From NCBI GenBank assembly GCA_022732885.1, contig JAIJTS010000003.1, forward strand, positions 44,205 to 108,204: 64,000 nucleotides of DNA, in the 5' to 3' direction. The notes beneath the pieces were generated by a model that made no database searches, had not been told where the DNA came from, and was given only the letters and a program-made list of their open reading frames with translations. This DNA is from Atopobium sp. (lineage in GTDB: Bacteria > Actinomycetota > Coriobacteriia > Coriobacteriales > Atopobiaceae). Below are positions 2,404 to 40,916 of this stretch, one piece after another (position 1 is the stretch's first letter; every line of letters begins with the position of its first letter). Made by a program: the position numbers and the translations under genes.

Positions 2404-5400
2404 TTACTCGTCGTCCCCTGCCTCAGCGTCCATGCGAACAACCTGGTTAAGGAGGTCATCCAAAGAGCCAAGGTCCTCATTGATTACATCTGGGCTAACC
2501 TCGTCGGAAGAAGAACCGATGAGTGTCTCAGTGTAATCAGAGTGAGTGGATGGAGCTGCAGAGCCCAGCATCAGTCCGCCATCGCCTTCTGGCGAGAAGA
2601 CCATGTTGAGCAGCTGAGAAAGATCCTCAGAATCTGCCTCATCCTCTTCTGGCTCAAGAATGTAGAGAAGGTTACGAGCCTCAAGACCATCGCGGAGCTC
2701 CTCGATTGCCTTTGCACCAATACCATCGATGCGAAGCAGGTCTTCCTCGGTCTTACCGATAAGATCGCCTACGGTCTCAATGCCAACCTCGCTGAACTTG
2801 TTGGTCCAACGCTGTGACACGCCAAGATCGTCGAAGAGATACAGCTTTGCATCCTCACTTGAAAGCGTACGGCCATTCTTGGAGTAAACGCCACCGTTGT
2901 AATCCTCGTTGACCCAATCAAGCTGCTTAGGAAGCTGCTCCTCAATGTCCTTAAGCTCCACTGGTGCCCAGTCTGGAAGAGACTTAGCAAAAGAAGAGGT
3001 TGGACCATCAATCTTGGTACCGTGATACGTAAGCTCAACATCATTGTATGCGGAAAGACCAGTACCTGCAGGAATCTGCTTACCAACAATGACGTTGGAC
3101 TTGAGGTCAAGCAGGTGGTCAACATCGCCCTCGATAGCTGCAGAAGTAAGAACACCTGCAGTACGGATGAACGATGCGCTAGAGAGCCAAGAATCGATAG
3201 AGCTTGCAACCTTTAGCGTACCAAGAATTGCTGGCTCTGCCTCTGGTGGAGTACCACCAGCAAGAGCAATGTTCTGGACAGTCTCTGCGAATACATAGCG
3301 GTCCACATACTGACCAAGCAGGTACGAAGAGTCACCTGGGTTGGTAACCTGAACGCGGCGAAGCATCTGACGTGCGATAACCTCGATGTGCTTATCGTTG
3401 AGTTCTACACCCTGGGAAGTATAGACGTCCTTAACGGACTCAACGAAGGTGTGCATAGTGGACTCAATGTCGGTGAGTCGACGGAGCATACGGAAGTTGA
3501 CAAAGCCGCGGGTAATCTGGTCGCCAGCACGGACAACTACGCCATCCTCAATGCCAGGCATGAAGCGGACGGATGCAGGTACACGCCACTCCTCGATAAC
3601 ACGGGAAGCATCGTCTGCATCAACAATACGCAGCAGGTACTCGGTGGTCTCTGGGGTAATGTGAAGAACACCAGAAACAGGAGCCAGGTCAGCCTCGCGA
3701 CCAAGAATCTTCTCGTTGACGTTGCCAACAACATCAAACATACGAGCAACGGTAGGAAGACCCTGCGTAATATCGTCTGCGCCTGCAACACCACCAGAGT
3801 GAATGGTACGCATGGTTAACTGAGTACCAGGCTCACCAATGGACTGAGCTGCGATAATACCAACTGCAGTACCAATGTTGACAGGACGACGGGTGGAAAG
3901 ATCCCAGCCGTAGCACTTCTGGCAGACGCCGTACTTAGACTTACAGGTCAGAAGCGCGCGGAGCTGAACCTTAGCAAGGCCATGCTCAACAAGACGCTCA
4001 AGATCCTGCTTGGACTCAACATAGCCACCAGCAGGGATAAGAACCTCACCGGTGTTTGGATCGCATACATCCTCGAGGGTGCAGCGGCCAATCAGGTCAG
4101 TATTAACAGAAGTCTGACCAGGCTTGATCAGAGGATAGGTGACTGCCTCATCAGTACCGCAGTCCTCCTCGCGAACAATGACGTCCTGTGCAACGTCGAC
4201 AAGACGACGAGTCAGGTAACCAGAGTCGGAAGTGTGGGATGCAGTATCTACCAGGCCCTTACGAGCGCCATAGGTAGAAATGAAGTACTCAAGAGGCTCA
4301 AGACCCTCACGGAAGTTTGCCTTAATTGGAAGGTCAATGGTTTCACCGGACATATCCGCCATCAGGCCTCGCATACCAGCAAGCTGGCGAAGCTGTGTCT
4401 TAGAACCACGAGCTCCAGAGTCAGCCATCATGTAAATTGGGTTGTTCTCTGCAAAGCCTGCAAGCATCTCAGAGCCGAGAAGATCGGTGCACTCGGTCCA
4501 TGCGTTAACAACCTCAACGTGACGCTCTCGCTCGGAGAGGAAGCCGTCCTCGTAGTACTCGTTGATCTGATCAACGCGGTCCTGTGCCTCCTGAAGCAGC
4601 TGTGGCTTGTGTGGAGGAATGACAGCGTCCCAAACAGAAACGGTCAGACCAGCAAGGGTTGCATAGTGGAAACCTGTCTTTTTGATGTTGTCCAGAATTG
4701 GCTCAACATCAGCCATTGGATAGCGGTCGCAGCAATCGTTGACCAAAACGCCAATGTCAGACTTAACCATCTTGTAGTTAATGTATGGGTAATCCTCTGG
4801 CAGGCACTGACGGTTGAAGATAATGCGACCAACAGTGGTCTCAAAACGCTTGGTACCCTCAGTAACATCCAGATCCTCATACTGACCGCGGCCAGTCATA
4901 ACGCGGAAGATAGCACGATCGCTATCAGCAACGTTTGCATCCTTGGAGCTTACGCGGACAACAACCTTTGCCTGAAGATCAAGGTCACGGTTGGCCTCAA
5001 TAGCCAGAAGAGCATCCTCAAAGCTTGCAAAGGTAAGAGTCTTAGCGTCTTCACCGGTCTTCTCGGAAGTGAGGTAGTAGACGCCAAAGACCATATCCTG
5101 AGAAGGAACGGTCAAAACCTTACCAGAAGCAGGGCTTCTGAGGTTGTTGCTGGAAAGCATCAGAATGCGAGCCTCTGTCTGTGCCTGAGTAGAAAGCGGC
5201 ACGTGGACAGACATCTGGTCGCCGTCGAAGTCTGCGTTAAATGGTGCGCAGACCAGTGGGTGCAGGTGGATAGCCTTACCCTCGATAAGAACTGGCTCAA
5301 ATGCCTGGATAGACAGACGGTGAAGGGTAGGTGCGCGGTTGAGAAGAACGAGGCGGTCCTGAATAACCTCATCCAGAACGTCCCAAACAACTGGGGTACC

Positions 5401-6831
5401 ACGGTCAATAGCGCGCTTTGCGCCCTTGATATTTTCTACCTTGCGGAGCTCAACCAAACGACGCATGACAAATGGCTTGAAGAGCTCAAGTGCCATAGCA
5501 GATGGAAGACCGCACTGGTGCAGCTTCAGGTGTGGGTCAACAACAATAACGGAACGGCCAGAGTAGTCAACACGCTTACCCAGAAGGTTCTGACGGAAAC
5601 GACCTTGCTTACCCTTAAGAGCCTCAGCAAGAGACTTCAGAGGACGTCCACCACGACCAGTGACGGGACGACCACGGCGACCATTGTCAAACAAAGCGTC
5701 AACGGACTCCTGAAGCATGCGCTTCTCGTTGTTAACAATGATAGAAGGTGCCTCAAGGTCAAGCAGGCGCTTAAGACGATTGTTGCGGTTAATAACACGA
5801 CGATACAAATCGTTTAAGTCGGAAGCTGCAAAACGGCCACCATCAAGCTGAACCATAGGACGAAGATCAGGTGGAATAACTGGTACAACGTCAAGAATCA
5901 TGTTAGCTGGATCGTTGCCACCCTTAAGGAAAGCGTCAACAATCTCAAGGCGTTTAATAGCCTTCTCGCGCTTTTGCTTCTGAGCATCCTCATTGGCGAT
6001 AATAGCGCGGAGCTCCTTGGCCTCTTTCTCAAGGTCAATGTTGGAGAGAAGGTCGCGGACAGCCTCTGCACCCATGCCGCCCTTGAAGTAGATGCCATAG
6101 TAGCGCTTAAGCTCGGAGAACAGACCCTCATCGGAGATGAGCTCTCTAGTCTCAAGCTGCATGAACTTCTCGAAAGCCTCACGACGAAGTGTCTTCTCTT
6201 CCTCGTACTCTTCCTCAAGATCGGCAACGCCTGCGCGAATCTCATCCTCAGAAAGAGGCTCAAAATCGCCAAACTCGTCATCTTGTGGCTGGCCCTGCTC
6301 ACGAAGGCGTGCGATCTGATCGTCACGCTCTGCATCGAGCTCTTCAAGGTCTGCTGCAAGCTCCTCACGAAGATCGTCTACGTCAGCCTCACGTGCCTCA
6401 GTGTCAACACTGGTGATTACGTAAGATGCAAAGTAGAGGACTTTCTCGAGGTCCTTGCTCTTGATATCAAGAAGACGTGCCAGAGGGAAGCTGGTTGGAC
6501 TCTTGAAGTACCAAATGTGGCTTACAGGAGCAGCAAGCTCGATGTGGCCCATGCGGTCACGACGAACCTTTGCGGTGGTTACTTCAACACCGCAGCGCTC
6601 GCAGGTAATGCCCTTGAAGCGAATGCCTTTGTACTTACCGCAGGCGCACTCCCAGTCCCTTACAGGTCCAAAGATCTTCTCGCAGAAAAGGCCGTCCTTT
6701 TCTGGCTTAAGGGTACGGTAGTTGATGGTCTCAGGCTTCTTTACCTCGCCATAGGACCAACCGCGGATATCATCAGCAGACGCTAGAGAAATTTTAATAG
6801 CGTCAAATTCAGTGGAATCGAAATCTGCCAC
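2404..6831 (-). CDS. rpoC: DNA-directed RNA polymerase subunit beta' with C-terminal HhH/acidic extension
   Basis: 1475 aa. N-terminus [68 protein letters not shown] and zinc-finger Cys motif. Conserved NADFDGD. Immediately downstream of rpoB. Confidence 0.97.
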
Positions 6832-6836
6832 AGTCG

Positions 6837-9800
6837 CTACTCCTTATCGGTGGTCGCGTCGCCTACAAGTGCGGATGCACCCTCAGCGTCTTGGGACAGG
6901 TCGGAAGCGGTTACCTCAGTAAAGCCAAGGTCGTTGAGGATCTCAACAGCGTTCTTCTCCTCAGGATCTGTGACCTTTGCGGTATTAGCACGCTTACGAT
7001 AGGAGATTGGCTCAATGTCAAGTGCCAGGGAGCGAATCTCTTTGACCAGAACCTTGAAGGACTCAGGAATTCCTGCAGTAGGAATGTTCTCGCCCTTAAC
7101 AATGGACTCATAGGTCTTAACACGGCCGTTGGTATCGTCAGACTTAACGGTGAGAATCTCCTGGAGGACGTTAGCAGCACCGTATGCATACAGTGCCCAA
7201 ACCTCCATCTCACCAAAGCGCTGACCACCAAACTGTGCCTTACCACCCAGAGGCTGCTGGGTAACAAGAGAGTAAGGACCAGTTGAACGTGCGTGGATCT
7301 TATCGTCAACCATGTGACCGAGCTTCAGGATGTAAGAGACGCCAACGGTAATTGGGCTCTTGAATGCCTCGCCGGTACGACCATCGTAGAGGGTAGTCTT
7401 ACCACGCTCGTTGAGCTGTGGAACAAACTCCTCACGCATGTCCTCGCCGTACTCTTTGAGAGCCTTGTTGATCATGTTGATATTGGTGCGGCGAACAATC
7501 TCTGCAACGGACTCATCAGTAGCACCGTCAAAGAGTGGTGTTGCAACAGGAATTGGGCCTTCAACGTAACGCTTAGAATCTGCGTCATCGTCATCCCAAC
7601 CATGTGCAGCGCCCCAACCAAGGTGGCACTCAAGCAGCTGACCAACGTTCATACGAGAAGGAACGCCCAGTGGGTCGAGAATAACGTCTACTGGGGTACC
7701 GTCTGCCATGTAAGGCATGTCCTCAACAGGGAGAACCTTACAAATAACACCCTTGTTACCGTGACGACCAGCAATCTTATCGCCTTGCTGGATCTTTCTA
7801 CGCTGAGCAACAAAGACGCGGACCAGGTCATTTACTCCTGGAGGCAGGTCGTCTCCAGCCTCACGGCTGAAGCGGACAACGTCAACAACGCGGCCATAGG
7901 AGCCGTGTGGCATCTTAAGGGAAGTATCACGAACGTCGTGTGCCTTAGCACCAAAGATTGCGCGAAGCAGGCGCTCTTCTGCGGTCAGAGCGGTCTCACC
8001 CTTAGGAGTGACCTTACCAACCAGAATATCGCCAGGGCCAACCTCAGCGCCGATGCGGATGATACCGTCATCATCGAGGTTTGCGAGCATGTCCTCACCA
8101 AGGTTAGGAATCTCGCGGGTAATCTCCTCAGCACCAAGCTTGGTGTCACGAGCATCAATCTCGTGACGAGAAATGTTAACGGAGGTCAGAAGGTCTTCCT
8201 GAACAACACGCTCGGAGACGATAATACCGTCCTCGTAGTTGTAGCCTTCCCATGGCATGTAAGCAACGGTAAGGTTTGCACCAAGTGCCAGCTCAGAGTG
8301 ATCGACAGATGGGCCATCTGCGATTGGCTGACCCTTCTCAACCTGCTGTCCAACAGTAACAATTGGACGGTGGTTGATGCAGGTAGACTGGTTAGAGCGC
8401 TCGTACTTAGGAAGATCGTAGCGCTGAGAACCGTGCTCATCGGAGTAGATGACAACGTGAGCTGCGTCTACCTCGGTGACCTCGCCTGCAAACTCTGCGC
8501 AAATAAGCTCGCCAGAGTCCTGAGCTGCGCGGCCCTCCATGCCAGTTCCAACATAAGGAGCGTGGGACTGAATCAGAGGCACTGCCTGACGCTGCATGTT
8601 TGCACCCATGAGGGTACGCTTTGCATCGTCGTGCTCAAGGAATGGAATGAGGTTAGCTGCGACGGAGAGAAGCTGACGTGGAGAAACATCCATGTAGTCA
8701 ACGTCCTCAACAGGAACCTGTGCAGGTGCACCGAAGGAACCGTCGAAGTCGCGAGTACGTGCAATAACACGGTCTGCATTTACAACCTTGCCGTCTGCGT
8801 CAACCTCAACAAACTTCTTAGACTTAGGGTCAATTGGGGTATTAGCAGGAGCAATAATGTGATTCTCCTCCTCGTCTGCAGTCATCCAAACGATGTCGTC
8901 AGAAACAACGCCACCTGTAACCTTACGATAAGGAGCTTCAATAAAGCCGTACTCATTTACGTGAGCATACAGTGCCAAGGAGCCGATAAGACCAATGTTT
9001 GGTCCCTCAGGAGTCTCGATTGGGCACATACGGGAGTAGTGCGAGTTGTGAACGTCGCGGACTGCGGTAGGAACGTTGGTACGACGGCTGGAGCCGGACT
9101 TGTGTCCTGCAAGACCGCCAGGTCCCAGAGCAGAAAGACGACGCTTGTGAGTCAAACCAGCAAGTGGGTTTGCCTGGTCCATGAACTGTGAAAGCTGAGA
9201 AGAACCGAAGAACTCCTTGATTGCAGCAACAATTGGACGGATGTTGATCAGAGACTGTGGAGTGATGTCGTCTGCGTCCTGAGATGCCATGCGCTCACGG
9301 ACAACACGCTCCATACGGCTCATACCAATGCGGAACTGGTTCTGGACCAGCTCACCAACGGTACGAACGCGGCGGTTGCCAAAGTGGTCAATGTCATCAA
9401 GGTGCTTAGACTCATCACCTGCGTGCACTGCAAGAAGATACTTTAGAGCTGCGACGATATCCTCTTTGGTAAGGACACGTACGTCTGCAGGAATCTCTTC
9501 CTCAAGCTTCTTGTTAATCTTGTAACGACCAACGCGAGCAAGGTCATAGCGCTGCTCATTGAAGAAGAGGCCGTCAAGCAGAGAACGGGCAGAGTCAACA
9601 GTTGGTGGCTCGCCTGGACGCTGACGACGATAAATCTCGATAAGAGCATCCTCACGTGTAGTAGCAACATCACGCTCAAGTGTGTTGCGAACAACATCGG
9701 AATCACCAAGGAGCGAGAGAATCTCGTCATCGGTAACAGCGATGCCAAGTGCACGGAGGAAGACAGTAGCGCTCTGGCGACGCTTGCGGTCAATAGAGAC

Positions 9801-10624: not shown

Positions 10625-10790
10625 CACGGCGCTCCATGCGCTCCGAGCGCACGGGTTTCTCGCCAGGTGCAGGTACGAGCGCGGCTGCGAGCGCACGGGT
10701 TTCTCGCCACACGCACCAACCTTTTCCTGCGTGCGCAGCTGCGAGCGCGCGGGTTTCTCGCCACACGCGCTAGCCTTTTGCTGCGTGCGC
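10625..10790. repeat. Tandem ~54-bp direct repeats (2.5 copies) each carrying GGGTTTCTCGCCA
   Basis: Units gctgcgagcgcRcgggtttctcgccacacgcNNNNNccttttNctgcgtgcg. Exact 13-mer at 10653, 10696, 10750. The four overlapping ORFs called here on both strands are repeat artefacts. Confidence 0.7.
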
Positions 10791-10819
10791 CTAAAAAGTG
10801 CAAAGAATCTGTATTTGAG

Positions 10820-10906
10820 CCACCGAATCTTTTACAAAATCAGGCAAATCCACAGAATCTTTGATACTTTTAGGCAAAATCCACCGATTCTTTTAAGAAA
10901 TCAGGC
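10820..10906. repeat. Three imperfect ~30-bp direct repeats (ccacMgaatcttt..aaatcaggc)
   Basis: Units at 10820-10845, 10846-10875 and 10876-10906, read directly from sequence. Confidence 0.6.
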
Positions 10907-11005
10907 GCGAGAAGAACTAGGACAAGTCATCCTGAATTCACGAGCAGCACACCGGATTTATGAGCCTGAAATGCACACCAAGTCTGAGCAAAAGTACTCA
11001 GATAA

Positions 11006-11065
11006 GGCGAGAAAAACAGGCAAATCACTCAGACATGGCGAGAAAATCCGGCAAATCGCTCAGAC
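11006..11065. repeat. Two ~30-bp direct repeats (ggcgagaaaaNcNggcaaatcRctcagac)
   Basis: Adjacent copies at 11006-11034 and 11035-11065. They contain GGCGAGAAA, the reverse complement of the TTTCTCGCC core. Confidence 0.6.
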
Positions 11066-11108
11066 TTGATGTACTTTTCAGGCTACAACAAAGCCTTTCT
11101 CGCCAGGC

Positions 11109-18113: not shown

Positions 18114-19217
18114 TTACGCGTCCTGGGTCCTGCGGAGCCACTCATAGCACATGACCGTTGTTGCCTGAGCAACGTTCAGGGACTCTACCTGGCCAAACTG
18201 AGGAAGCTTGCACGTAAAATCGCACTTCTCGAGCATAAGGCGAGAAATTCCTGAACCTTCAGAGCCCATAACAAGTGCAAGGCGGCCTCCCATAGGAGCC
18301 TCCCACACGGACTGAGTGGCGTGCTCGGTGGAGCCACATGTCCAAAAACCTGCGGCTTTGAGCTCTTCAAGAGCGCGTGGCAGATTAGAAACCTGAGCAA
18401 TTGGCAGGTGAAGCACGGCTCCTGCGGAAGTCTTGTATGCTCCAACGCCAACTCGAGCGGCGCGAGCGTTTGCAATAACGACGCCGGCTGCGCCAACTAC
18501 CTCAGCACTTCTTACGATTGCGCCAAAGTTTCCCTCGTCAGTGACATGATCCAAGACCACAACCAGCGCGTTTTCAGAACCGGCGCGCTGAATAATTTCA
18601 GAGAGGTCGGCGTAGGCAAAAGGCTGTGTACGGACAATAACGCCCTGGTGAGCGCCGTGGCTTGAAAGCGAGTCAAGTACTGGTTTTGCAACACGCTCGA
18701 CAGGAATACCCTCCTGCTCAAGCTGGCGTGCAAGCGCCTCAATCTCCTGGTCCTTCTGTCCGCTTGCGGCTTGTACCAGCGCATTCTTCAAAGGAATGCC
18801 AACAGTCAGCGCCTCAGCTACTGCGCGACGACCCTCGATAAGATCAGTTGCAGGCTTCTTATTGCCGGGACGTCCAGCGGCGGCACCTCGCTGTCCACCA
18901 GCGCCTTTCTGTCCGCGAGTGCCCTGAGCTGCACGTGCGCCTTGTGTGGAGCGTGCGCCCTTTGAGCCCTGGCCATTCTTGGCGCCAAAATAACCGCCCC
19001 AGTCGGCAGTCTTCTTGGAGCCACGACCTGCGCCACCGCGACCAGCAGCGCCACCACGACCTGCAGCGCCACCGCGACCTGCGCCGCTGCGACCTGCAGC
19101 TCCTCCGCGACCTGCGGAGCTACCGCGACCCGAAGCTCCACCGCGGCCAGCAGCGCCACGACCAGCAGCACCCTCGGAACGAGTGTTTTTAGAGGTAGAA
19201 CGCTGATTTCTTGCCAT
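18114..19217 (-). CDS. rlmB: 23S rRNA (guanosine-2'-O)-methyltransferase RlmB (SpoU/TrmH family) with ~125-aa RGG/GAR-rich N-terminal extension
   Basis: C-terminal SPOUT domain (ENALVVVLDHVTDEGNFGAIVRSAEVVGAAGVV...LALVMGSEGSGISRLMLEKCDFTCKLPQFGQVESLNVAQATTVMCYE). N-terminus is (GAAGRGG)n low complexity encoded by 15-18-nt tandem DNA repeats. Confidence 0.85.
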   Translation of the reverse strand: MARNQRSTSKNTRSEGAAGRGAAGRGGASGRGSSAGRGGAAGRSGAGRGGAAGRGGAAGRGGAGRGSKKTADWGGYFGAKNGQGSKGARSTQGARAAQGTRGQKGAGGQRGAAAGRPGNKKPATDLIEGRRAVAEALTVGIPLKNALVQAASGQKDQEIEALARQLEQEGIPVERVAKPVLDSLSSHGAHQGVIVRTQPFAYADLSEIIQRAGSENALVVVLDHVTDEGNFGAIVRSAEVVGAAGVVIANARAARVGVGAYKTSAGAVLHLPIAQVSNLPRALEELKAAGFWTCGSTEHATQSVWEAPMGGRLALVMGSEGSGISRLMLEKCDFTCKLPQFGQVESLNVAQATTVMCYEWLRRTQDA

Positions 19218-32219: not shown

Positions 32220-33050
32220 ATGGTCTTACATGATTTTTGGACATTTTTTATATGGTCGACTGTAGCGGGCCTTATTATTGTTGGCGTTTACCAGCTACTT
32301 CTATTAATTCTGCGTGCTCGAGGCATTTTTGTAACTCGTACAAAATTTGGCCTCACGATGATTTTTGATTCCGAAGATGCCGACGACACACCTATTAGGT
32401 TGCTCAATGTTAACGGCACCTTCCAGTCTGTAAGTTATATTGCGCCTGATCTGCGCTTTGAACTCTGCGTCCACTATCACCGCATGATGGCGCAGGTTAT
32501 CCAGCAGATAGCCCCACAAGGTCATGTTGTAGTTATGGGCGGAGGAGGTTTCTCGCTGCCAAAATTCCTGGCCACACACATGAAGGGCGCCGTTATTGAC
32601 GCGATTGAGATTGATCCGAAGATTGTCTTGCTTGCTCGTGAGCACTTCTTTTTGGACGAAGCGCTGAGCGCAGCTTCAAGCGAATTGCATGTTATCGAAG
32701 ACGATGCGTGGAAGGTCCTGCAGGATTCGGATGCCAGCAGCATTGACGTGCTGGTAAACGAGGTATTTGCTGGTCGCAAGTCACTTGGACCTCTGGGGAC
32801 TACGGCTGGCGCGCAAACGGTCAAAGAGAAGCTTGCGTTTGGCGGAGTGTATCTGGCCGATGTCCGCTGTCCGCTCGAAGGCCGTGGATCTGCGCTACTC
32901 TCCCAGGTTACGGGCGCCTTTGCACACGAGTTTGCGCACGTTGCGTACGTGCCCGAGTGGCCCGATACTCCTAAAATCCCAGGTAACAACCTCTTAATTG
33001 CAACCGACGCGGATATCGCACTTCCCGAAGGTGCAATTGTAGTGAAATAA
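32220..33050 (+). CDS. Spermidine-synthase-like (SpeE family) protein with N-terminal membrane segment
   Basis: VVMGGGGFSLPKFL (GGGDG-like), AVIDAIEIDPKIVLLAREHF and later D-rich motifs resemble aminopropyltransferases. Two N-terminal hydrophobic helices. Confidence 0.55.
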   Translation: MVLHDFWTFFIWSTVAGLIIVGVYQLLLLILRARGIFVTRTKFGLTMIFDSEDADDTPIRLLNVNGTFQSVSYIAPDLRFELCVHYHRMMAQVIQQIAPQGHVVVMGGGGFSLPKFLATHMKGAVIDAIEIDPKIVLLAREHFFLDEALSAASSELHVIEDDAWKVLQDSDASSIDVLVNEVFAGRKSLGPLGTTAGAQTVKEKLAFGGVYLADVRCPLEGRGSALLSQVTGAFAHEFAHVAYVPEWPDTPKIPGNNLLIATDADIALPEGAIVVK

Positions 33051-33093
33051 AGTCACGCTATGATCTAACTGCGTGACAACCGACGCCTACAAT

Positions 33094-33161
33094 CCTGTTG
33101 ACTACCATCCTGTTGCTTGCTCGATCATTATCCAGTTGACCGCCATCCTTTTGCTTGCTCG
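33094..33161. repeat. Two ~30-bp imperfect direct repeats (tgttgacYRccatcctKttgcttgctcg)
   Basis: Copies at 33094-33123 and 33132-33161. Confidence 0.55.
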
Positions 33162-33241
33162 TAAAAACTGCATATTTAACCTTGTTTATGCAGAATTTTG
33201 TATCAAAATTTTGAGCCTCAAAAATTTGACTACTTTTTTGA

Positions 33242-33418
33242 GTAAAAATCCCGTTTAGTTGGAGATCAAATCACAAACTCGGAATTTTTTGTCTCACGTT
33301 TGTGCAGGTAGCAAAAAGTGTCCAGATTTTACTATTTTTGTCCACCACAAAAACCCAGGTAAATGGCTTGCATAAAAATCAACTATTACTGCATACTCCA
33401 ACTAAACGGAATTTTTAC
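33242..33418. mobile_element. MITE-like 177-bp element, copy A (22-23 bp terminal inverted repeats gtaaaaatcccgtttagttggag / ctccaactaaacggaatttttac)
   Basis: Near-perfect TIRs at 33242-33264 and 33396-33418. A second copy of the same size with the same TIRs is at 39462-39638 in inverted orientation. No ORF inside. Confidence 0.6.
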
Positions 33419-33472
33419 CACTTACATCCCAAGCAATCAACAAAACCGCAGTTGTCTGAAATTTGTGCTAAG

Positions 33473-33589
33473 CCAGTGCTAGATTGGCTTGCAATTTATA
33501 CTGCTCCAGTGCTAGATTGGCTTGCAATTTATATCGCTCCAGTGCGTATGCCGACCCGGTGCGTATACCGCCCCAGTGCGTCTGCGCCG
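33473..33589. repeat. Tandem repeats upstream of malic enzyme (2 x 34 bp ccagtgctagattggcttgcaatttata.., then 3 x 17 bp ccRgtgcgtNtRcSSMc)
   Basis: Read directly from sequence; every unit begins ccagtgc/ccggtgc. Confidence 0.65.
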
Positions 33590-33779
33590 TACAATTGCAG
33601 CCAGTCTTGCCTTTGCCAAAAAGTAAATTCCTCAAATTCCCAAGAAAACATAACGTGAAATGAGTAGTGTTATCCTTAAAAAGGTGGACAGGTACTATTC
33701 ATGACATGCAAAAAACATGTTTGCATCAGTCAATCTACCTAGAAATAAAATACACCTGGGAGTTAGCTTGGGAGTTGCT

Positions 33780-35414
33780 ATGAAAACAGGTTTTGAACTA
33801 CTAAATGACCCCTTCCTCAACAAGGGAACCGCTTTTACGCAAGAGGAGCGTCAAAAATATGACTTGGTAGGCCTTCTCCCTCCTTATATTCAGACCATCG
33901 AGGAGCAGGCGGAACAGGCATACGTGCTTTTTCAGCAGTACCCCAATCTTGAGACAAAGCGCCACTATCTCATGAGGCTTTTCTCAGAGAACCGCACACT
34001 GTTTTACAACCTGTTCTCAAAGCATATCGAAGAGTTCATGCCTATCGTCTACGATCCAACCATCGCGCCTGATATTGAGCAGTACTCCCGGCGCTACGTT
34101 GACTCGCAGTACGCATGCTTCCTGTCAGTTGATCGCCCTGAGGACCTCGAAACCTCGCTGAAGAACGCTGCAGCAGGTAGAGACATTGACCTGATTGTTG
34201 TTACGGACGCAGAGGCAATTTTGGGCATCGGCGACTGGGGCACCAACGGCGTTGAGATTTCCGTTGGCAAACTCATGGTTTACACCGCTGCAGCTGGCGT
34301 TGATCCAAACCGCATCATGCCTGTTGTCATTGACGCCGGTACCAATCGTCAGGAGCTGCTCAATGACCCACTGTACCTGGGCGAGCGCCACAAGCGCATT
34401 GATGAGGACCGCTATAACGCCTTCATTGACAGCTTTGTAACCACCGTCGAGAAGCTCTTCCCTAACCTCTACCTGCACTTCGAAGACTTCGGCCGCTCAC
34501 ACGCTGCGGCAATTCTGGAGCGCTACAAGAACACCTATCCCGTCTTCAACGACGACGTCGAGGGCACCGGCATCGTCACGCTTGCAGGCATCCTCGGTGG
34601 CCTCAACATTTCTGGCGAGAAACTCGTCGACCAGGTATATCTCTGCTTTGGTGCAGGAACTGCTGGTTGCGGCATTGCTGAGCGTGTGCTGCAGGAGTTT
34701 GTGGACCAGGGAATGGATCGCGAAGAGGCTCGCAAGTGCTTCTACCTGGTTGATCGCCAAGGCTTGCTATTCGAAGACATGGATAACCTCACTCCACAGC
34801 AGAAGCCATTTGCTCGCAAACGTTCTGAGTTTCCAAACGCTGATGAGCTCACCAACCTTGCGGCTGTTGTGAAAACGGTCCATCCAACAATCATGGTTGG
34901 TACCTCTACCGTTCACGGCGCCTTTACTGAGGAGATTATCCGCGAAATGGCAGCTCACTGTGAGCGCCCCATGGTCTTCCCTCTGTCCAACCCAACTAAG
35001 CTTGCAGAGGCAACCGCCCAAGACCTGCTGACCTGGACTGATGGTCGCGCACTTGTTGCTTGCGGTGTTCCGTCCGATGACGTGGAGCTAGACGGCGTAA
35101 CCTACCAGATTGGTCAGGCAAATAACGCTCTTATCTACCCTGGCCTTGGTCTTGGTGTTCTTGCATCAAAGGCTCGTCTGCTCACAGATCAGATGATTTC
35201 CCTAGCAGCTCACTCGCTTGGCGGAATCGTTGACACCACAAAGCCTGGCGCGGCAATTCTTCCTCCAGTCTCCAAGATTACCGAGTTCTCCGAGCGTATT
35301 GCCGTTGGCGTTGCAGAAGAAGCCCTCAAACAGGGCTTGAACCGAGAGCCAATTGCTAATGCAAAAGAAGCAGTTGACGCCCTCAAGTGGTTCCCAGTCT
35401 ATAAAGAGCTGTAA
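33780..35414 (+). CDS. NAD-dependent malic enzyme / malolactic enzyme family
   Basis: About 545 aa. [28 protein letters not shown] malic enzyme N-terminal signature, two Rossmann GxGxxG ([11 protein letters not shown]). ATG at 33780 is preceded by GGGAG. Confidence 0.88.
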
Positions 35415-35424
35415 TACGCCAGAG

Positions 35425-36411
35425 TTAGTCCAGCAGCACGCCTTCAGCAGCAGAGGCGGAGCCGTCGAGGACGTTACACTTTTGGATCTGGTGGACAAAC
35501 CAAGTGCGGAATGCCTTTTGGTCAACGCCAACGCATACCGTTGCGTTGGGTTTCTCGCCAAGATATCCGGCTAGGTCAACAACGGTGCAGCCGGTGGTCA
35601 GACCACCAGCACACTCGACGTCCACAAATACATCTTTGGTCTCAAACATCTGAGGCGCCAGCAGGTACGCCACGGCCGTTGGGTCGTACATGCTAAAGCC
35701 CTCCGCCTTGTAGTGGACGCGGTAGTTGAGCAGCAGCTTAACCAGCATGTCACCACTCTTGCCGGAGTTCTGGATGTTCTCGATGTCCTCAGGCATAACA
35801 CGAGCGGCGTCACCCACCTCAAGGCCAACCATGGCCACATGAACACCAGACGCAAAGACAATCTTTGCTGCTTCAGGGTCAACGCCCACGTTGAACTCGG
35901 ACATGACGCCAAGGTTACCGCGGGTCAGAGCACCGCCCATCATAACAATGCGCTCGATATGCTCTTTAACCTCTGGGTATGCTTTCAGCAGCAGGGCAAT
36001 ATTGGTCAGAGGACCAAGCGTGACGAGCGTGGTTTTCCCGCCAGTTAAAGCACCTTCCATAATGACGCGATGCTGTGCTTCAAGTGCAGTTTCTTCAAGT
36101 AGGCAGTCCAGCTGAATGCCGTCAAACTCGTAGCCTCTCATGCCTGAAGCGCCGTGGACGTCACTTGCATCCATTGGCTTTCTGATCAGGGGTTCAGCCG
36201 CGCCGCGCGCGACAGGCACGTGCTGATTCCAGAATTTAAGCAGCTTGAGGGTATTGTTGGTGACGTTCTCGATGCCAACATTTCCGCTAACGGTGGTAAT
36301 AAGCTTGATATCCAGTGCCTTTGCGGCAAGAGCAAATCCCAGCGCAATGGCGTCGTCAATGCCAGGATCTGTGTCGATGATGACACGCGTCTTAGTTGAA
36401 AGCGTTGCCAT
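35425..36411 (-). CDS. Inosine-uridine preferring nucleoside hydrolase (IunH/Rih family)
   Basis: N-terminal VIIDTDPGIDDAIAL aspartate cluster. 328 aa. 3' region contains an exact copy of the dispersed 13-mer (35548-35560). Confidence 0.88.
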   Translation of the reverse strand: MATLSTKTRVIIDTDPGIDDAIALGFALAAKALDIKLITTVSGNVGIENVTNNTLKLLKFWNQHVPVARGAAEPLIRKPMDASDVHGASGMRGYEFDGIQLDCLLEETALEAQHRVIMEGALTGGKTTLVTLGPLTNIALLLKAYPEVKEHIERIVMMGGALTRGNLGVMSEFNVGVDPEAAKIVFASGVHVAMVGLEVGDAARVMPEDIENIQNSGKSGDMLVKLLLNYRVHYKAEGFSMYDPTAVAYLLAPQMFETKDVFVDVECAGGLTTGCTVVDLAGYLGEKPNATVCVGVDQKAFRTWFVHQIQKCNVLDGSASAAEGVLLD

Positions 36412-36426
36412 AAGTCTCCTTTGTAC

Positions 36427-36535
36427 GTTTGATCTGCGTGTATGTTACGTTTGAGCTGCGTATAGACTGCGTTTTGCTGTGTGCAAGCTGCGTATTGTTA
36501 TGCGCAAGCTGCGTTTTGCTGTGTGCAAGCTACAA
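36427..36535. repeat. Five ~21-bp tandem repeats (tgcgttttgctgtgtgcaagc-like) between rbsK and the nucleoside hydrolase gene
   Basis: Units gtttgatctgcgtgtatgttac / gtttgagctgcgtatagac / tgcgttttgctgtgtgcaagc / tgcgtattgttatgcgcaagc / tgcgttttgctgtgtgcaagc. Confidence 0.65.
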
Positions 36536-36566
36536 ATTATGAAGCAACAATCACGGTAATTTTAGC

Positions 36567-37487
36567 CTAAAACTCAATTACCTGCTGATACGTTGGAATT
36601 GATTGCTGCGCACCAACCTTGGTAGTGGCAAGAGCCGCAGCCTTTGCTGCTACGTCGAGTGCCTGCTTGATGCCATGACCCTCCAGCTGTCCCAATGCCT
36701 GGAACGCGGCAAGTGTGCCCATAAACGTATCTCCCGCGCAGGTAGTATCCACAGTATCCACGTGATAGCATCCCTGCTGGTACACGCCGTGCGCGTCGGC
36801 AGCAATAGAGCCCTTGGAGCCCAGCGTCAGCACCGCAGTTGAAACGCCACTTGCAAGCACCTTCTGGACCGCAGCCTCGGGGTCTGCCAGCGGACTAATC
36901 TTGCCCTCACCAAACAGGTCCGCAAACTCGATCTCGTTCAGGCAGAGCACGTCCACACTGGCGAGAAGACCGGTGGTCATGGGAGCCGCTGGCGATGGGT
37001 TCACCATCGTATAGAGCCCCAGGTCATGAGCATGCTTGATGAGCTCAAACGTGGTCGACAACTCGCACTCAAACTGCGTCAAGAACACATCACCCGGCTC
37101 TGCGATGCCATCTAGCACTGCTTTTACGTCGCCAGCCGTGCGAGCATAATTAGCGCCGTGGTCCAAAATAATGCAGTTATCGCCGCCCACGCGTACAATC
37201 ACGGCAACACCAGTAGAAACACCAGGCAGCTCATCTACCTGCTCCGCATTGACTCCATAACCAGTAAGCGAATCCTTCAAGTCACACCCAAACGCATCGG
37301 CGCCAACCGCACCAATCATGTGAACATCTGCACCCATTAAAGCTGCAGCAACCGCCTGGTTGGCACCCTTTCCACCTGGACTAGTAACAAGGTTTTTTCC
37401 GCCAATAGTCTCACCCTGTTGAGGCATCTTATCTGCCTCTATGGAAATATCCATGTTGAGACTTCCAAATACAATCACTTTGCCCAT
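36567..37487 (-). CDS. rbsK: Ribokinase
   Basis: MGKVIVFGSLNMDI...GGKGANQAVAAA and C-terminal DTTCAGDTF anion-hole motif, PfkB family. Upstream of the nucleoside hydrolase on the same strand. Confidence 0.88.
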   Translation of the reverse strand: MGKVIVFGSLNMDISIEADKMPQQGETIGGKNLVTSPGGKGANQAVAAALMGADVHMIGAVGADAFGCDLKDSLTGYGVNAEQVDELPGVSTGVAVIVRVGGDNCIILDHGANYARTAGDVKAVLDGIAEPGDVFLTQFECELSTTFELIKHAHDLGLYTMVNPSPAAPMTTGLLASVDVLCLNEIEFADLFGEGKISPLADPEAAVQKVLASGVSTAVLTLGSKGSIAADAHGVYQQGCYHVDTVDTTCAGDTFMGTLAAFQALGQLEGHGIKQALDVAAKAAALATTKVGAQQSIPTYQQVIEF

Positions 37488-37651
37488 GAAATTCACCTAT
37501 CACTACCTATAAACTTTCTTGAAATAATACCTTGTAAAAGGCAAGGAACTGTTTTGTCTTCAGACACATTTTATATCTGAACCATCAGATAAGACTAAAG
37601 CACTAAAAGCATGGGTATATGCTTGATGTTTTCGTTTTGGAAAGGATTGCA

Positions 37652-38422
37652 ATGGACTTACAAGAAGCTATGGAGCAGCGTATTTCTATGCGCGCTTACG
37701 ATCAAAAGCCTATTGAACAAGAAAAACTTTCTCAGCTCCAAGAAGCCATTGATGTTGCAAATGCTCAAATGGCAAAAGTGGCACCTGATCACCCTGCAAT
37801 TCTCACTATCGAGGGTCCTCATCTTGAAGACGGCACCTCTGTCCACATGAAAAACAAATCTATTGTCGGCCCCATTTACCACTACGTAGCAGGTTATTGT
37901 GAAGACGCAATTTCCCGTGAACTCATTGGTTATTATGGCGAGAAAATCGTTCTTCTCGCCACCCAGCTGGGTATTGGCTCATGCTGGATTGCTGAGACTA
38001 TGGATAGAAAGACTCTATCTCGCGAAGAGTATAACGGTCTTAACCTGGGCATTATTATCTCTATTGGATACGCTCCAGAGAAGATTCCGCTCAAGCAGGA
38101 GGGCATTCGTACCGCAATCCGCCTGCGTACTAAGAAACCTGCGCAGATTATGACGGCAAACGGCACTCCAACTGAGCCGGAGCAGATGCCCGAGTGGTTT
38201 AACCGTGGCATTGATGCGGTTTTGGCATGTCCAACCGCTATCAACAAGCTGCCTGTTGTATTTGACCTGACAGATGGCGTGGTAAGTGCTTCTATACCTA
38301 ACCAGCGCCACCTTATTCAAGACTATGACCTGGGTATTTCCAAGCTGCACTTTGAACTTGCCGCTGACCTTAAGGGTACGTGGGAACTTGGACAGCCTGG
38401 TAAATTTATCGTTTTCGAATAG
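37652..38422 (+). CDS. Nitroreductase-family protein
   Basis: RISMRAYDQKPI near the N-terminus (RxSxRxF/Y signature). About 256 aa from the internal ATG; the ORF track starts at 37619. Confidence 0.6.
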   Translation: MDLQEAMEQRISMRAYDQKPIEQEKLSQLQEAIDVANAQMAKVAPDHPAILTIEGPHLEDGTSVHMKNKSIVGPIYHYVAGYCEDAISRELIGYYGEKIVLLATQLGIGSCWIAETMDRKTLSREEYNGLNLGIIISIGYAPEKIPLKQEGIRTAIRLRTKKPAQIMTANGTPTEPEQMPEWFNRGIDAVLACPTAINKLPVVFDLTDGVVSASIPNQRHLIQDYDLGISKLHFELAADLKGTWELGQPGKFIVFE

Positions 38423-38534
38423 CGCTCGCCGAGCAACACCCAGCTTGTAGCGCTTCCGGCTTAGCGCACCCAACGCGCTTCTCAGCTCAGCGCACCTAGC
38501 TCGACGCCACATCACTTACAAGAAAGGACATCAC

Positions 38535-39242
38535 ATGGCCTGCTCCGCACAGCACGTTGCAAACAAAGTTCTCTCGTCCTACCAGTGGAGACTTGCAACC
38601 AAAAAGTATGACCCAACCAAAAACGTTTCTGACGAGGATCTTGAGGTAATTCTTGAGGCCGCTCGCCTCGCACCAAGCTCCTATGGTCTAGAGCCTTGGC
38701 GCTTCTTGGTTGTTAATTTGCGAGAGAATCAGGCCTCTGATCAGTCTCTTCGCCTTAAAGAGAAACTTTATGAGCCGTGCTATGGTGCTCGTGCATCCCT
38801 CAATGGCGCTCATTACCTGGTTATTCTTCTTGCTCGCAAGAACGTCAACGCAGAGTCTGCTTACGTCAAGCACATGATGCACGACATCAAGCAGCTTCCT
38901 GCAGACTTTGAACCAACCTACGCCGCTGCTTTTAAGAACTTCCAGGAAAACATGTTTGACCTGGCAGGCAACGAGCGCGCAACCTTCGATTGGGCTTGCA
39001 AGCAGACCTACATTGCACTCTCAAACATGCTTACTATGGCCGCTATGATTGGCGTTGATAGCTGCCCAATTGAGGGCTTTAACCGCAAGGCTGTCGATAA
39101 GATCTTGGAAGAAGAGGGTCTTCTCGATGGCGGACAGTATAACGACTTTGGCGTTTCCTGTATGCTTAGCCTGGGCTATCGTGACATGGATCCTGTCCAG
39201 AAGCATCGTCAATCTGCTGAGGATGTTATTGTTAGGCTGTAA
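38535..39242 (+). CDS. NAD(P)H nitroreductase (NfsB-like)
   Basis: 235 aa. WRLATKKYD, APSSYGLEPWRFLVV, typical of oxygen-insensitive nitroreductases. Confidence 0.75.
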   Translation: MACSAQHVANKVLSSYQWRLATKKYDPTKNVSDEDLEVILEAARLAPSSYGLEPWRFLVVNLRENQASDQSLRLKEKLYEPCYGARASLNGAHYLVILLARKNVNAESAYVKHMMHDIKQLPADFEPTYAAAFKNFQENMFDLAGNERATFDWACKQTYIALSNMLTMAAMIGVDSCPIEGFNRKAVDKILEEEGLLDGGQYNDFGVSCMLSLGYRDMDPVQKHRQSAEDVIVRL

Positions 39243-39461
39243 AGCGCTATTACACTAACTTGTGAGCTGCCCCCTATTTCCACTACCTGGGAAATAGGGG
39301 GCAATCTATTTAGCAGGCAATTCCCTCTTGAGCGAAGAAGCCTTTGCTTTGTAGGAAGCTTATTGCACGTGCGAAACTCCGTCGCACACAGTTCGGTCAC
39401 ACGTCATTTTGACGCCAACTGGCCTTTTTTGGTCCAACGAAACCTATTTCAACGCAAAGTG

Positions 39462-39638
39462 GTAAAAAATGCGTTTAGTTGGAGTATCCAGAATTGATAG
39501 ATTTTTATGCAAGCGATTTACCAGCACTTTTAATTGGACAAATTTTACGTGTACATTCACATTATTTCTGAACTGCTAAAACGTAAATGCCAAAATGGCA
39601 AAATCAAAAAATTATCTCCAACTAAACAGATTTTTTAC
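39462..39638. mobile_element. MITE-like 177-bp element, copy B (TIRs gtaaaaaatgcgtttagttggag / ctccaactaaacagattttttac), inverted relative to copy A
   Basis: TIRs at 39462-39484 and 39616-39638. Internal segment gatttttatgcaagc is the reverse complement of gcttgcataaaaatc in copy A. Confidence 0.6.
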
Positions 39639-39860
39639 CCAAAACAGTACCCTCTGAATGACATATCAATTTCTTGATTAATTTTTATGCATATTTGTCT
39701 GTTTTTATGCATATTAGAGTATTTTAAGCGCCCCGTGAACCGTGTGCAACCGATGTACTTCGACACGCCACACACACTACTCACGCCGTGTAACTACGAC
39801 GTGCATAGTGTGCTCAAACAAACGGTGCAGACGACCAACCTAAACAGAGAAAACCTTTGA

Positions 39861-40916
39861 TTACCTGCGAATAAACCTAAACCCGCGGCCAGAGTGAATG
39901 TAGGGTAAGAATGCTCGATCTTCCTCGCAGATCATTCCAGCAATGTTATCGCGAGCATCAAGCTCTAAAAGCCCTCGAGCAATTGAAAGTTCTCCTGCAT
40001 AGCGGCCATACGCTTTGCTGCTCACTAAGATAGCGCCATCAGCCACCGTCTCCCAGTTAGTAGGTTTTGCCTCGTATACTGGAGCATCTTTCCAAAGTCT
40101 AGACTCTTGCGAGCGAATAATATACGAACTGGAATCAGGACGATCTGTCTGACGTCGGCCATATAAATACTCAAAATCAGGTTCTAACTTGGCTTTTAAC
40201 TCAATACAATTTCGCTCAAGCTGACCAACACGCTTCCACGTAGTCTCAGTAACATCTGGATCACCAATAAGCACTACGTCAGAATCTGCATCGTAAAGAG
40301 CAAGCATTGCCTGAATAAGCGCATCACCAGAAAGTCCACGATGTTCCTCTACGGTTGGAAGTCCCTCGTAAAGAGGACCGCGGAAGACTTCACCAGGCAC
40401 AAACGAGAAAATCTGGAATCCAAGAGCAGAAAGGTGTGCATTAATCTGAGCCACGCGCTCAAGCGAAAGGCCTGTGTAACTCTTGGGATAGTAATTGTGG
40501 CAGGCGGCAAAGCGGGTAAAGTCGGCGCCAGCAGCTCGCCATGCGGAAATGTCATCCTTAGTGATGGTTGAAGCATTAAAGACCACATGGAACTTGCGAG
40601 AAAGCTCAACAGTCTCTGCCGCGTCGAATCCAAAATCAAGACGAACATACGTAATGCCCAGCTCTGCAAGCTCGTCAAACTTCTGAACGCCAAGCTTTGA
40701 AAGAGTAGCAGGAGAAACATCAGCAATGAGGTTAATCTCCGCCTTTCTACAAAGCTCCAAGAGCTTACGAGCCTCAGTACGATAATCAATCCCCTCTTCT
40801 TCTGGGATTTGTAGAGAAGTAAACGCATAGTGACATCCGGCTGCCCGCGCTTTTGCTACGACCTTAGCATTAGCCTCATATCCACTGGCAAAATACAGTG
40901 AAATTCCGGTGCGCAT
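39861..40916 (-). CDS. mupG: DUF871 / MupG-like 6-phospho-N-acetylmuramidase
   Basis: 351 aa. N-terminal MRTGISLYFAS typical of DUF871. Last gene of the murR-murQ-murP cluster. Confidence 0.7.
   Translation of the reverse strand: MRTGISLYFASGYEANAKVVAKARAAGCHYAFTSLQIPEEEGIDYRTEARKLLELCRKAEINLIADVSPATLSKLGVQKFDELAELGITYVRLDFGFDAAETVELSRKFHVVFNASTITKDDISAWRAAGADFTRFAACHNYYPKSYTGLSLERVAQINAHLSALGFQIFSFVPGEVFRGPLYEGLPTVEEHRGLSGDALIQAMLALYDADSDVVLIGDPDVTETTWKRVGQLERNCIELKAKLEPDFEYLYGRRQTDRPDSSSYIIRSQESRLWKDAPVYEAKPTNWETVADGAILVSSKAYGRYAGELSIARGLLELDARDNIAGMICEEDRAFLPYIHSGRGFRFIRR

Follow-up and report, generated by a model that had tools for sequence, protein, structure and literature searches.

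Two copies of a modular, asymmetric inverted-repeat unit in the intergenic DNA of Lancefieldella ("Atopobium")

The Correia element of Neisseria (CREE/NEMIS) is a non-coding, intergenic repeat of ~100–200 bp with inverted repeats (IRs) of ~24–26 bp, and its documented roles are those of a promoter, an IHF-binding site and an RNase III target (PMC10969869). Here, we describe a family of repeat units that shares this size, IR length and intergenic placement. Two of its copies lie in a 64,000-nt stretch of Atopobium sp. DNA (GenBank assembly GCA_022732885.1, contig JAIJTS010000003.1, positions 44,205 to 108,204), which we call the window and which has a G+C content of 47.7%. Like Correia elements, the units come in size classes that differ by internal segments, and both would form a long hairpin when transcribed. 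Correia repeats, however, are truly terminal, are flanked by a TA duplication and exceed 100 copies per genome, whereas in the units one repeat is internal, no duplication is seen, and ~10–20 copies per genome are fixed at orthologous sites.

Three other described systems resemble the units in part. The BOX elements of Streptococcus pneumoniae (boxA-boxB-boxC) are likewise modular, non-coding and intergenic, with variable internal modules, end modules that can pair, no known transposase, no clear target-site duplication and suspected regulatory roles (in part from PMC10969869). They differ in having no sequence relationship to the units and neither long, near-perfect 24-bp IRs nor a one-sided extension. 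REPINs consist of two inverted short repeats that form a hairpin, are vertically inherited and persist for long periods at orthologous sites. The inverted pair, the hairpin and the retention at orthologous sites are shared with the units, but REPINs are shorter, number in the hundreds, depend on a single-copy RAYT gene and are built from REP sequences that are each palindromic. Invertons also occur as several loci in which a common IR consensus flanks ~100–300 bp; the units, by contrast, show no orientation polymorphism in ~120 copies and have no recombinase gene that we found next to them.

Based on the structure, distribution and conservation presented below, we judge it an even call that this is a transposon-derived modular repeat family that was exapted and is now stable, functional intergenic DNA in Lancefieldella. 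[quoted passage not shown] In the literature searched, we found no MITEs or repeat families reported for Atopobium or Lancefieldella, and the family appears to be undescribed for the genus.

Structure of the repeat unit

The two 177-bp segments that drew attention to the family, at 33242–33418 and 39462–39638, are both present in the window. Copy 1 aligns over its full length with the reverse complement of copy 2; the opposite orientation first assigned to the pair is therefore correct, as are the internal strings that had been quoted as related but inverted. The ends of the two copies align well (83% over a 75-nt stretch and 86% over a 36-nt stretch), and the middle aligns more weakly. The consensus IR of both is GGTAAAAAATNCGTTTAGTTGGAG, with a length of 23–24 bp and arms that are 96% complementary over 23 nt in copy 1 (33242–33264 and 33396–33418) and 92% complementary over 24 nt in copy 2. 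The arms are 131 nt apart in each copy. Allowing one mismatch, the 12-nt IR core GTTTAGTTGGAG occurs at exactly four sites in the 64-kb window against 0.36 expected, a count matched by no shuffled sequence. The IR 22-mer, allowing three mismatches, has three matches against 0.00 expected.

These IRs had been taken for 22-bp terminal repeats. They are real, and slightly longer than that, but they are terminal on one side only. Homology between sites stops ~6–8 nt outside one IR, at the boundary between (C)AAAGTGG and GTAAAAAA, and runs 72–85 nt past the other in all three size classes of the family (~72 nt in the 178-bp class, to which both window copies belong). The idea that the IRs are the termini of a mobile unit thus fails on one side in the between-site alignments of all three classes, and the repeated unit is asymmetric, with a length of 257 bp in the window. 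It consists of an IR module, with two nearly invariant 24-bp IRs, and a 72–85-bp extension that ends in short AT-rich palindromes. Between the two window copies, identity is 66% overall, 92% and 83% in the IRs, 63% in the interior and 56% in the extension. The parts are listed here, with IR-L on the side without the extension, IR-R adjoining it, and nucleotide diversity (pi) among orthologues where available:

33169–33425, minus strand: unit copy 1, 257 bp, 178-bp class, site group C (from between-site alignments and nhmmer profiles)
33396–33419, minus strand: copy 1 IR-L, GGTAAAAATTCCGTTTAGTTGGAG
33265–33395, minus strand: copy 1 interior, 131 nt, containing TTTTTATGCAAGC
33242–33264: copy 1 IR-R, plus strand reading GTAAAAATCCCGTTTAGTTGGAG
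33169–33241, minus strand: copy 1 extension, with TGCATA-N12-TATGCA at 33169–33192, TCAAAATTTTGA at 33203–33214 and TCAAAAATTTGA at 33218–33229
39455–39711, plus strand: unit copy 2, 257 bp, 178-bp class, site group E
39461–39484, plus strand: copy 2 IR-L, GGTAAAAAATGCGTTTAGTTGGAG, pi 0.042
39485–39615, plus strand: copy 2 interior, 131 nt, pi 0.112
39616–39639, plus strand: copy 2 IR-R, CTCCAACTAAACAGATTTTTTACC, pi 0.046
39640–39711, plus strand: copy 2 extension, pi 0.064, with TCAATTTCTTGA at 39666–39677 and TGCATATTTGTCTGTTTTTATGCA at 39688–39711

The extension of the 178-bp class has the sequence ACC-CAAAACAG, ~20 variable nt, ATATCAATTTCTTGATTAGTTTT, 2 variable nt, TGCATAT, 8–9 variable nt and GTTTATGCA, and its palindromes are TCAA-N4-TTGA and TGCATA-N12-TATGCA. 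The 148- and 160-bp classes carry their own versions in the same place, again with short AT-rich palindromes and a final ATATGCA motif, and in both of these classes a T run follows the last IR. We assign the extension to the unit because profiles built from one class match it in another and because its palindrome pattern occurs only near units. The match of the 148- and 160-bp nhmmer profiles to window copy 1 takes in its extension, and the profiles of all three classes cover ~33165–33454. TGCATA-N12-TATGCA has two sites in the window, each beside a unit, and a relaxed form of the pattern has 14 sites in 543 kb of loci, all less than 200 nt from a unit. The bases that adjoin the IRs do not vary freely from site to site either; they are conserved and hence part of the unit, and no target-site duplication is visible there.

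Two other origins of the extension were considered and rejected. It is not an independent repeat targeted by the IR module, as none of the sites of the palindrome in the 543 kb lies away from a unit. Nor does it derive from the end of an insertion sequence (IS)-like element that interrupts some units, for which local alignment scored no better than shuffled sequence and nhmmer returned nothing.

The absence of an open reading frame (ORF) from both copies, as first described, holds in the sense that no ORF is conserved. Short ORFs of 16–47 aa do exist inside the elements, but their length and frame vary between copies, and the one in copy 2, at 39479–39571, is not conserved. A small protein gene was likewise rejected: the TTG-start ORF in the IR (MEY..FYAS.LP) encodes 16, 30, 35 or 47 aa depending on the site group, its frame is not kept, and the variable sites show no codon periodicity.

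Distribution and conservation of the family

We scanned one genome per species with the IR pattern AAAAANNNNGTTTAGTTGGAG and obtained at least 117 stretches. Among those listed, 83 come from ~50 assemblies assigned to Atopobium, Lancefieldella parvula or Atopobiaceae, and the remaining 34 are lone matches in unrelated taxa, without a partner repeat. At the Lancefieldella loci among these matches, the IRs pair into three size classes, whose lengths include the 24-nt IRs:

178-bp class: 24 copies, including both window copies, at 5 or more sites (groups A–E, defined by their flanks)
160-bp class: 11 copies at 3 or more sites
148-bp class: 38 copies at ~7 sites, with a third, internal IR in the pattern + + -

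The family thus counted occupies, among the matches listed, ~15 intergenic sites with unrelated flanks in ~50 assemblies. Since the flanks of different sites are not homologous, segmental duplication does not account for the copies. The preliminary description had proposed a genome-wide count; our scan of one genome per species found many copies at unrelated loci. The outcome it had set against transposition, in which only these two copies exist and their flanks are also homologous, is not what we observed.

Nearly all copies occupy orthologous positions across species. Orthologues of copy 1 with homologous flanks are present at loci L039, L069, L076, L089 and L221, and copy 2 has ~50 non-identical orthologous copies with ~88% identity. 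The window copies are old insertions and not the product of a recent duplication. As far as seen, only members of the parvula clade of Lancefieldella ("Atopobium") carry the family.

Nothing similar to the unit turned up in the plasmid or phage collections. A further 28 viral loci match the IR pattern because a group A unit sits at a prophage edge: these matches are group A units in host DNA, beside a tRNA gene and the border of a prophage. The group A unit is ~120 nt from the tRNA gene (L077:699–772; also L197, L204, L206 and L212), and in IMG/VR proviral contigs it is found at the predicted prophage edge, where it adjoins an incomplete copy of the 3' end of the tRNA.

For the intergenic region that holds copy 2, we built an alignment of 50 non-identical orthologues, computed pi per segment, and compared each segment with the third codon positions of the adjacent nitroreductase gene by a Mann-Whitney test:

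Flanking spacers: pi 0.20, not lower than third codon positions
Third codon positions of the nitroreductase gene: pi 0.149 (reference)
Unit interior: pi 0.112 (P = 1.5 × 10−4)
Extension: pi 0.064 (P = 2 × 10−6)
Two IRs: pi 0.044 (P = 2 × 10−9)

Invariant sites make up 83% of the IRs, compared with 32% of the third codon positions. In the 148-bp class, orthologous copies share 94.6% identity in the IR module and 89% in the 70 nt beside it, and the similarity among paralogues is about the same as among orthologues. Neutral decay following an ancient insertion would not yield this pattern. The units, and above all their IRs and extension, are thus either maintained by selection or homogenized by conversion.

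Signs of past or recent spread come from the 148-bp class, in which copies at unrelated sites, and in different genomes, are 96–100% identical. In addition, contigs from metagenome-assembled genomes and from Logan often end ~50 nt inside a unit. We sought empty sites through the neighbouring genes, nitroreductase for copy 2 and malolactic enzyme for copy 1. The copy 2 site is without a unit in five metagenome loci (L165 and four others), whose nitroreductase and mupG genes are ~100 bp apart, compared with 618 bp in the window. The copy 1 site lacks a unit in L. rimae, Lancefieldella sp. Marseille-Q7238 and L220; a closer relative, at 89% amino-acid identity, has a ~95-bp gap there, and relatives at 96% carry the unit. 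In each comparison, occupied and empty sites differ by a block of ~520–600 bp with ragged ends, not by the element alone. Target-site duplications, which the preliminary description had proposed to seek by such comparisons, could not be read from them. Among the fetched loci, the copy 2 site was the only one with empty sites, and we found no case in which the window is itself the empty site for an element present elsewhere.

Some contigs join sequences in unusual combinations at units. L090 and L159 connect the left flank of one unit site to the right flank of another, and the copy 2 site of L159 is also occupied by a 148-like unit; these combinations suggest either recombination between units or misassembly, chimeric at the repeat. 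Separately, the same foreign sequence, AGT(T/C)ACGTCTCAAAAAGTGGTGTAAGGCTATTTCCTTAC..., begins at L020:7107–7187, L026:2484–2535, L080:6726–6823 and L114:1–60. Three of these four junctions lie inside repeat units, and the contigs end soon after. The sequence has a GTAAGG/CCTTAC hairpin, does not resemble the unit extension, and probably represents one end of an insertion sequence with a preference for units as targets.

Genomic setting of the window copies

The genes around the two copies, in order along the window, are as follows:

32220–33050, plus strand: spermidine-synthase-like gene, preceding copy 1
33717–35414, plus strand: malic-type enzyme ORF, following copy 1
Between the malolactic enzyme and nitroreductase genes, both minus strand: nucleoside hydrolase gene, then PfkB kinase gene
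Before copy 2, plus strand: two nitroreductase genes, the second ending at 39242
39861–40916, minus strand: mupG, after copy 2, followed by a PTS EIIBC gene on the minus strand

Copy 1 lies upstream of the gene first called malic enzyme; the position is right, and the source name carried by its 546-aa homologues is malolactic enzyme. From the length of these homologues, the start of the window gene is probably near 33774 rather than at 33717. Both copies had also been placed in promoter-proximal spacers. This suits copy 1, but copy 2 is flanked by the converging 3' ends of nitroreductase (39242) and mupG (39861) and is therefore not promoter-proximal. The terminator scan found a strong terminator hairpin at 39268–39303, between the nitroreductase gene and copy 2. 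The extensions of the two units face outward from the 6-kb gene block that separates them.

Short tandem direct repeats lie on both sides of copy 1, at 33092–33161, 33457–33522 and 33530–33587 (38 nt twice, 33 nt twice and 17 nt three times), and belong to a ~600-bp block that is absent from the unit-less relatives. The gap between the spermidine-synthase-like and malolactic enzyme genes is ~720 bp in the window, compared with an operon-like 17–20 bp in L. rimae and Lancefieldella sp. Marseille-Q7238. Inside the gene block, 21–22-nt tandem repeats (CTGCGTTTTGCTGTGTGCAAG-like) fill 36424–36545, in the spacer between the minus-strand nucleoside hydrolase and PfkB genes. Related strains (L121, L128 and L165, ~3530–7100) have ~3.5 kb extra between the PfkB kinase and first nitroreductase genes; it is missing at ~37498–37652 of the window, and its ends are without repeat units.

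Elsewhere in the window, 10640–11100 holds a second, unrelated repeat family of 54-nt tandem copies with motifs such as GGCGAGAAAAnCnGGCAAATCnCTCAGAC, which match sequence near units in L007, L008, L026, L043 and L098 with 75–87% identity. G+C-rich tandem repeats of 15–18 nt (GCGCCACCGCGACCAGCA-like) at 19030–19170 are probably within a coding region.

Origin and possible function

If the family is transposon-derived, we propose that some form of transposition carried it to its ~15 intergenic sites in the clade's ancestor and that the unit is the exapted relic of a mobile element. The two window copies of the 178-bp class would be old insertions passed on by vertical inheritance, whereas spread or homogenization may still be under way in the 148-bp class. 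The window copies now appear to be subject to purifying selection, which acts most strongly on the IRs and the extension. The IRs and the extension palindromes would be putative recognition sites for a protein encoded elsewhere, either transposase-derived or a regulatory DNA-binding protein. Where a unit is transcribed from its neighbours, its IRs would pair into a 22–24-bp stem flanked by A and U tracts, and this stem would block or process read-through transcripts. The predicted fold of the unit, at −55 to −63 kcal/mol with a z-score of −2.9 to −3.7, is dominated by the IR stem. The unit would thereby insulate adjacent genes, as do Correia, enterobacterial repetitive intergenic consensus (ERIC) and BOX elements. 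The most likely function, as we infer it from sequence comparisons, is that of protein-binding or hairpin-forming intergenic DNA. Of these two, the near-invariance of the 24-bp IRs, the mismatch that their arms consistently keep (TGCG vs TCCG) and the class-specific extension palindromes point to sequence-specific protein recognition over RNA pairing.

Several observations weigh against this interpretation. None of the unit-less lineages at either site offers a clean empty site or an exact insertion junction, and no target-site duplication was found at the outer boundaries of the units or by comparison with empty sites; the case for mobility therefore rests on distribution and not on junctions. 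No transposase gene lies between or beside the IRs in any of the at least 117 genome and 28 viral loci. Gene conversion between the numerous IR copies, instead of selection, could account for part of the low diversity. The repeat-binding partner is a putative protein only, and the orientation of the units relative to neighbouring genes is inconsistent. Upstream of copy 2, the nitroreductase gene already has its terminator at 39268–39303, so that an insulator is not obviously needed there. As to the earlier suggestion that the units may supply promoters or terminators, a consensus promoter scan found no site inside either unit, and the terminator scan within the units returned one weak site of five pairs, on the minus strand of copy 2 at 39588–39600. 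The IRs also show essentially no covariation (the RNAalifold term is −0.04, with one double change among 24 sequences, in copy 1). By eye, the interior gave no convincing match to a catabolite-responsive (cre) site or another known operator motif.

A more specific proposal, which we regard as less likely than not, is that the units, far from being transposons in decay, are domesticated modules of a mobile element: cis-elements that are inherited vertically, maintained by selection and bound by a dedicated DNA-binding partner. The 24-bp IRs and the extension palindromes would then build a protein-DNA complex that organizes or insulates metabolic gene clusters in Lancefieldella. Paired units, such as those at the malolactic/nitroreductase cluster and at a phosphoketolase gene, would then mark boundaries.

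It is unlikely, though far from negligible, that the family is instead an ordinary active MITE, a deletion derivative of an IS that is mobilized in trans by a transposase that recognizes 24-bp terminal IRs and whose copies are neutral passengers, which may supply promoters or terminators by accident. The units are small and non-coding, have IRs of this length and occur in many copies at unrelated intergenic sites; the copies of the 148-bp class are nearly identical between sites, assemblies break inside units, and some lineages lack a unit at the same site. These are the respects in which the preliminary reading of a non-autonomous transposable element stands: the family is multi-copy, non-coding, bounded by IRs, present at unrelated loci and marked by signs of past or recent spread. 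It falls short where the homology extends 72–85 bp past one IR in all classes, which means that the IRs are not the termini, and where the sequence next to them is conserved between sites, leaving no duplication visible. The autonomous IS with the same ends that was expected to accompany the copies was not found among the genome loci listed, the viral loci or the plasmid and phage collections. Moreover, nearly all copies sit at orthologous positions, those in the window are old, and conservation above that of synonymous sites would not be expected of neutral passengers.

Somewhat less probable again is that the units encode small RNAs or act in cis as structured RNA elements, the IR stem being their main helix. 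The unit folds more stably than shuffled sequence. Every part of it, the interior too, varies less than third codon positions, several variable stem positions can form G-U pairs only on the strand that runs from the IR module to the extension, the 148- and 160-bp classes have the T run after the last IR, and the position of copy 2 between convergent genes is a frequent one for stand-alone small RNA genes. However, RNAalifold on 24 sequences retained only the IR stem and a small TCAA/TTGA stem, with no conserved structure in the interior and the covariation term given above, and neither unit contains a consensus promoter or a strong terminator. No Rfam family matches any size class at E ≤ 1, and the consistent arm mismatch suggests a constraint on sequence rather than on pairing.

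We consider it very improbable that the two units are the ends of a composite transposon or recombination cassette that carries the 6-kb block of malolactic enzyme, nucleoside hydrolase, PfkB and two nitroreductase genes. The geometry invites the idea: the units are inverted with their extensions outward (33169–33425 and 39455–39711), and the same arrangement surrounds the phosphoketolase (XFP) gene of L098, where a 148-class unit plus extra flank forms 316-nt inverted arms (L098:916–1231 and 4527–4842) that are 85% complementary, also with extensions outward. The gene content between the two sites also differs in L. rimae. Yet the window units are only 66% identical, each is also found alone at its site in other genomes, and L087 has two units in direct orientation. 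In all relatives the block keeps its chromosomal position, and the additional 3.5 kb described above is not bounded by units.

Least probable, and disfavoured, are invertons, in which a site-specific recombinase would flip the IR-flanked segment for phase variation of neighbouring genes: several loci per genome do share an IR consensus around 100–130 bp, with the IRs conserved in place and the window copies in opposite orientation, but that orientation applies to entire units together with their extensions, none of ~120 copies (24 + 38 + 11, plus ~50 copy 2 orthologues) has its interior turned around with respect to the extension, and at copy 2 there is no gene that such a switch could drive.

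The mouth and gut commonly harbour Lancefieldella parvula and its relatives, whose genomes are small (~1.5 Mb). Returning to the transposon-derived family as the preferred explanation, units that vary less than synonymous sites and are fixed in dozens of species-level lineages are good candidates for an exapted mobile element with a host function. The family is a tractable case for how miniature repeats turn into regulatory or structural DNA. Because the units break metagenome assemblies of the genus and can yield chimeric contigs, knowledge of them also aids assembly and annotation.

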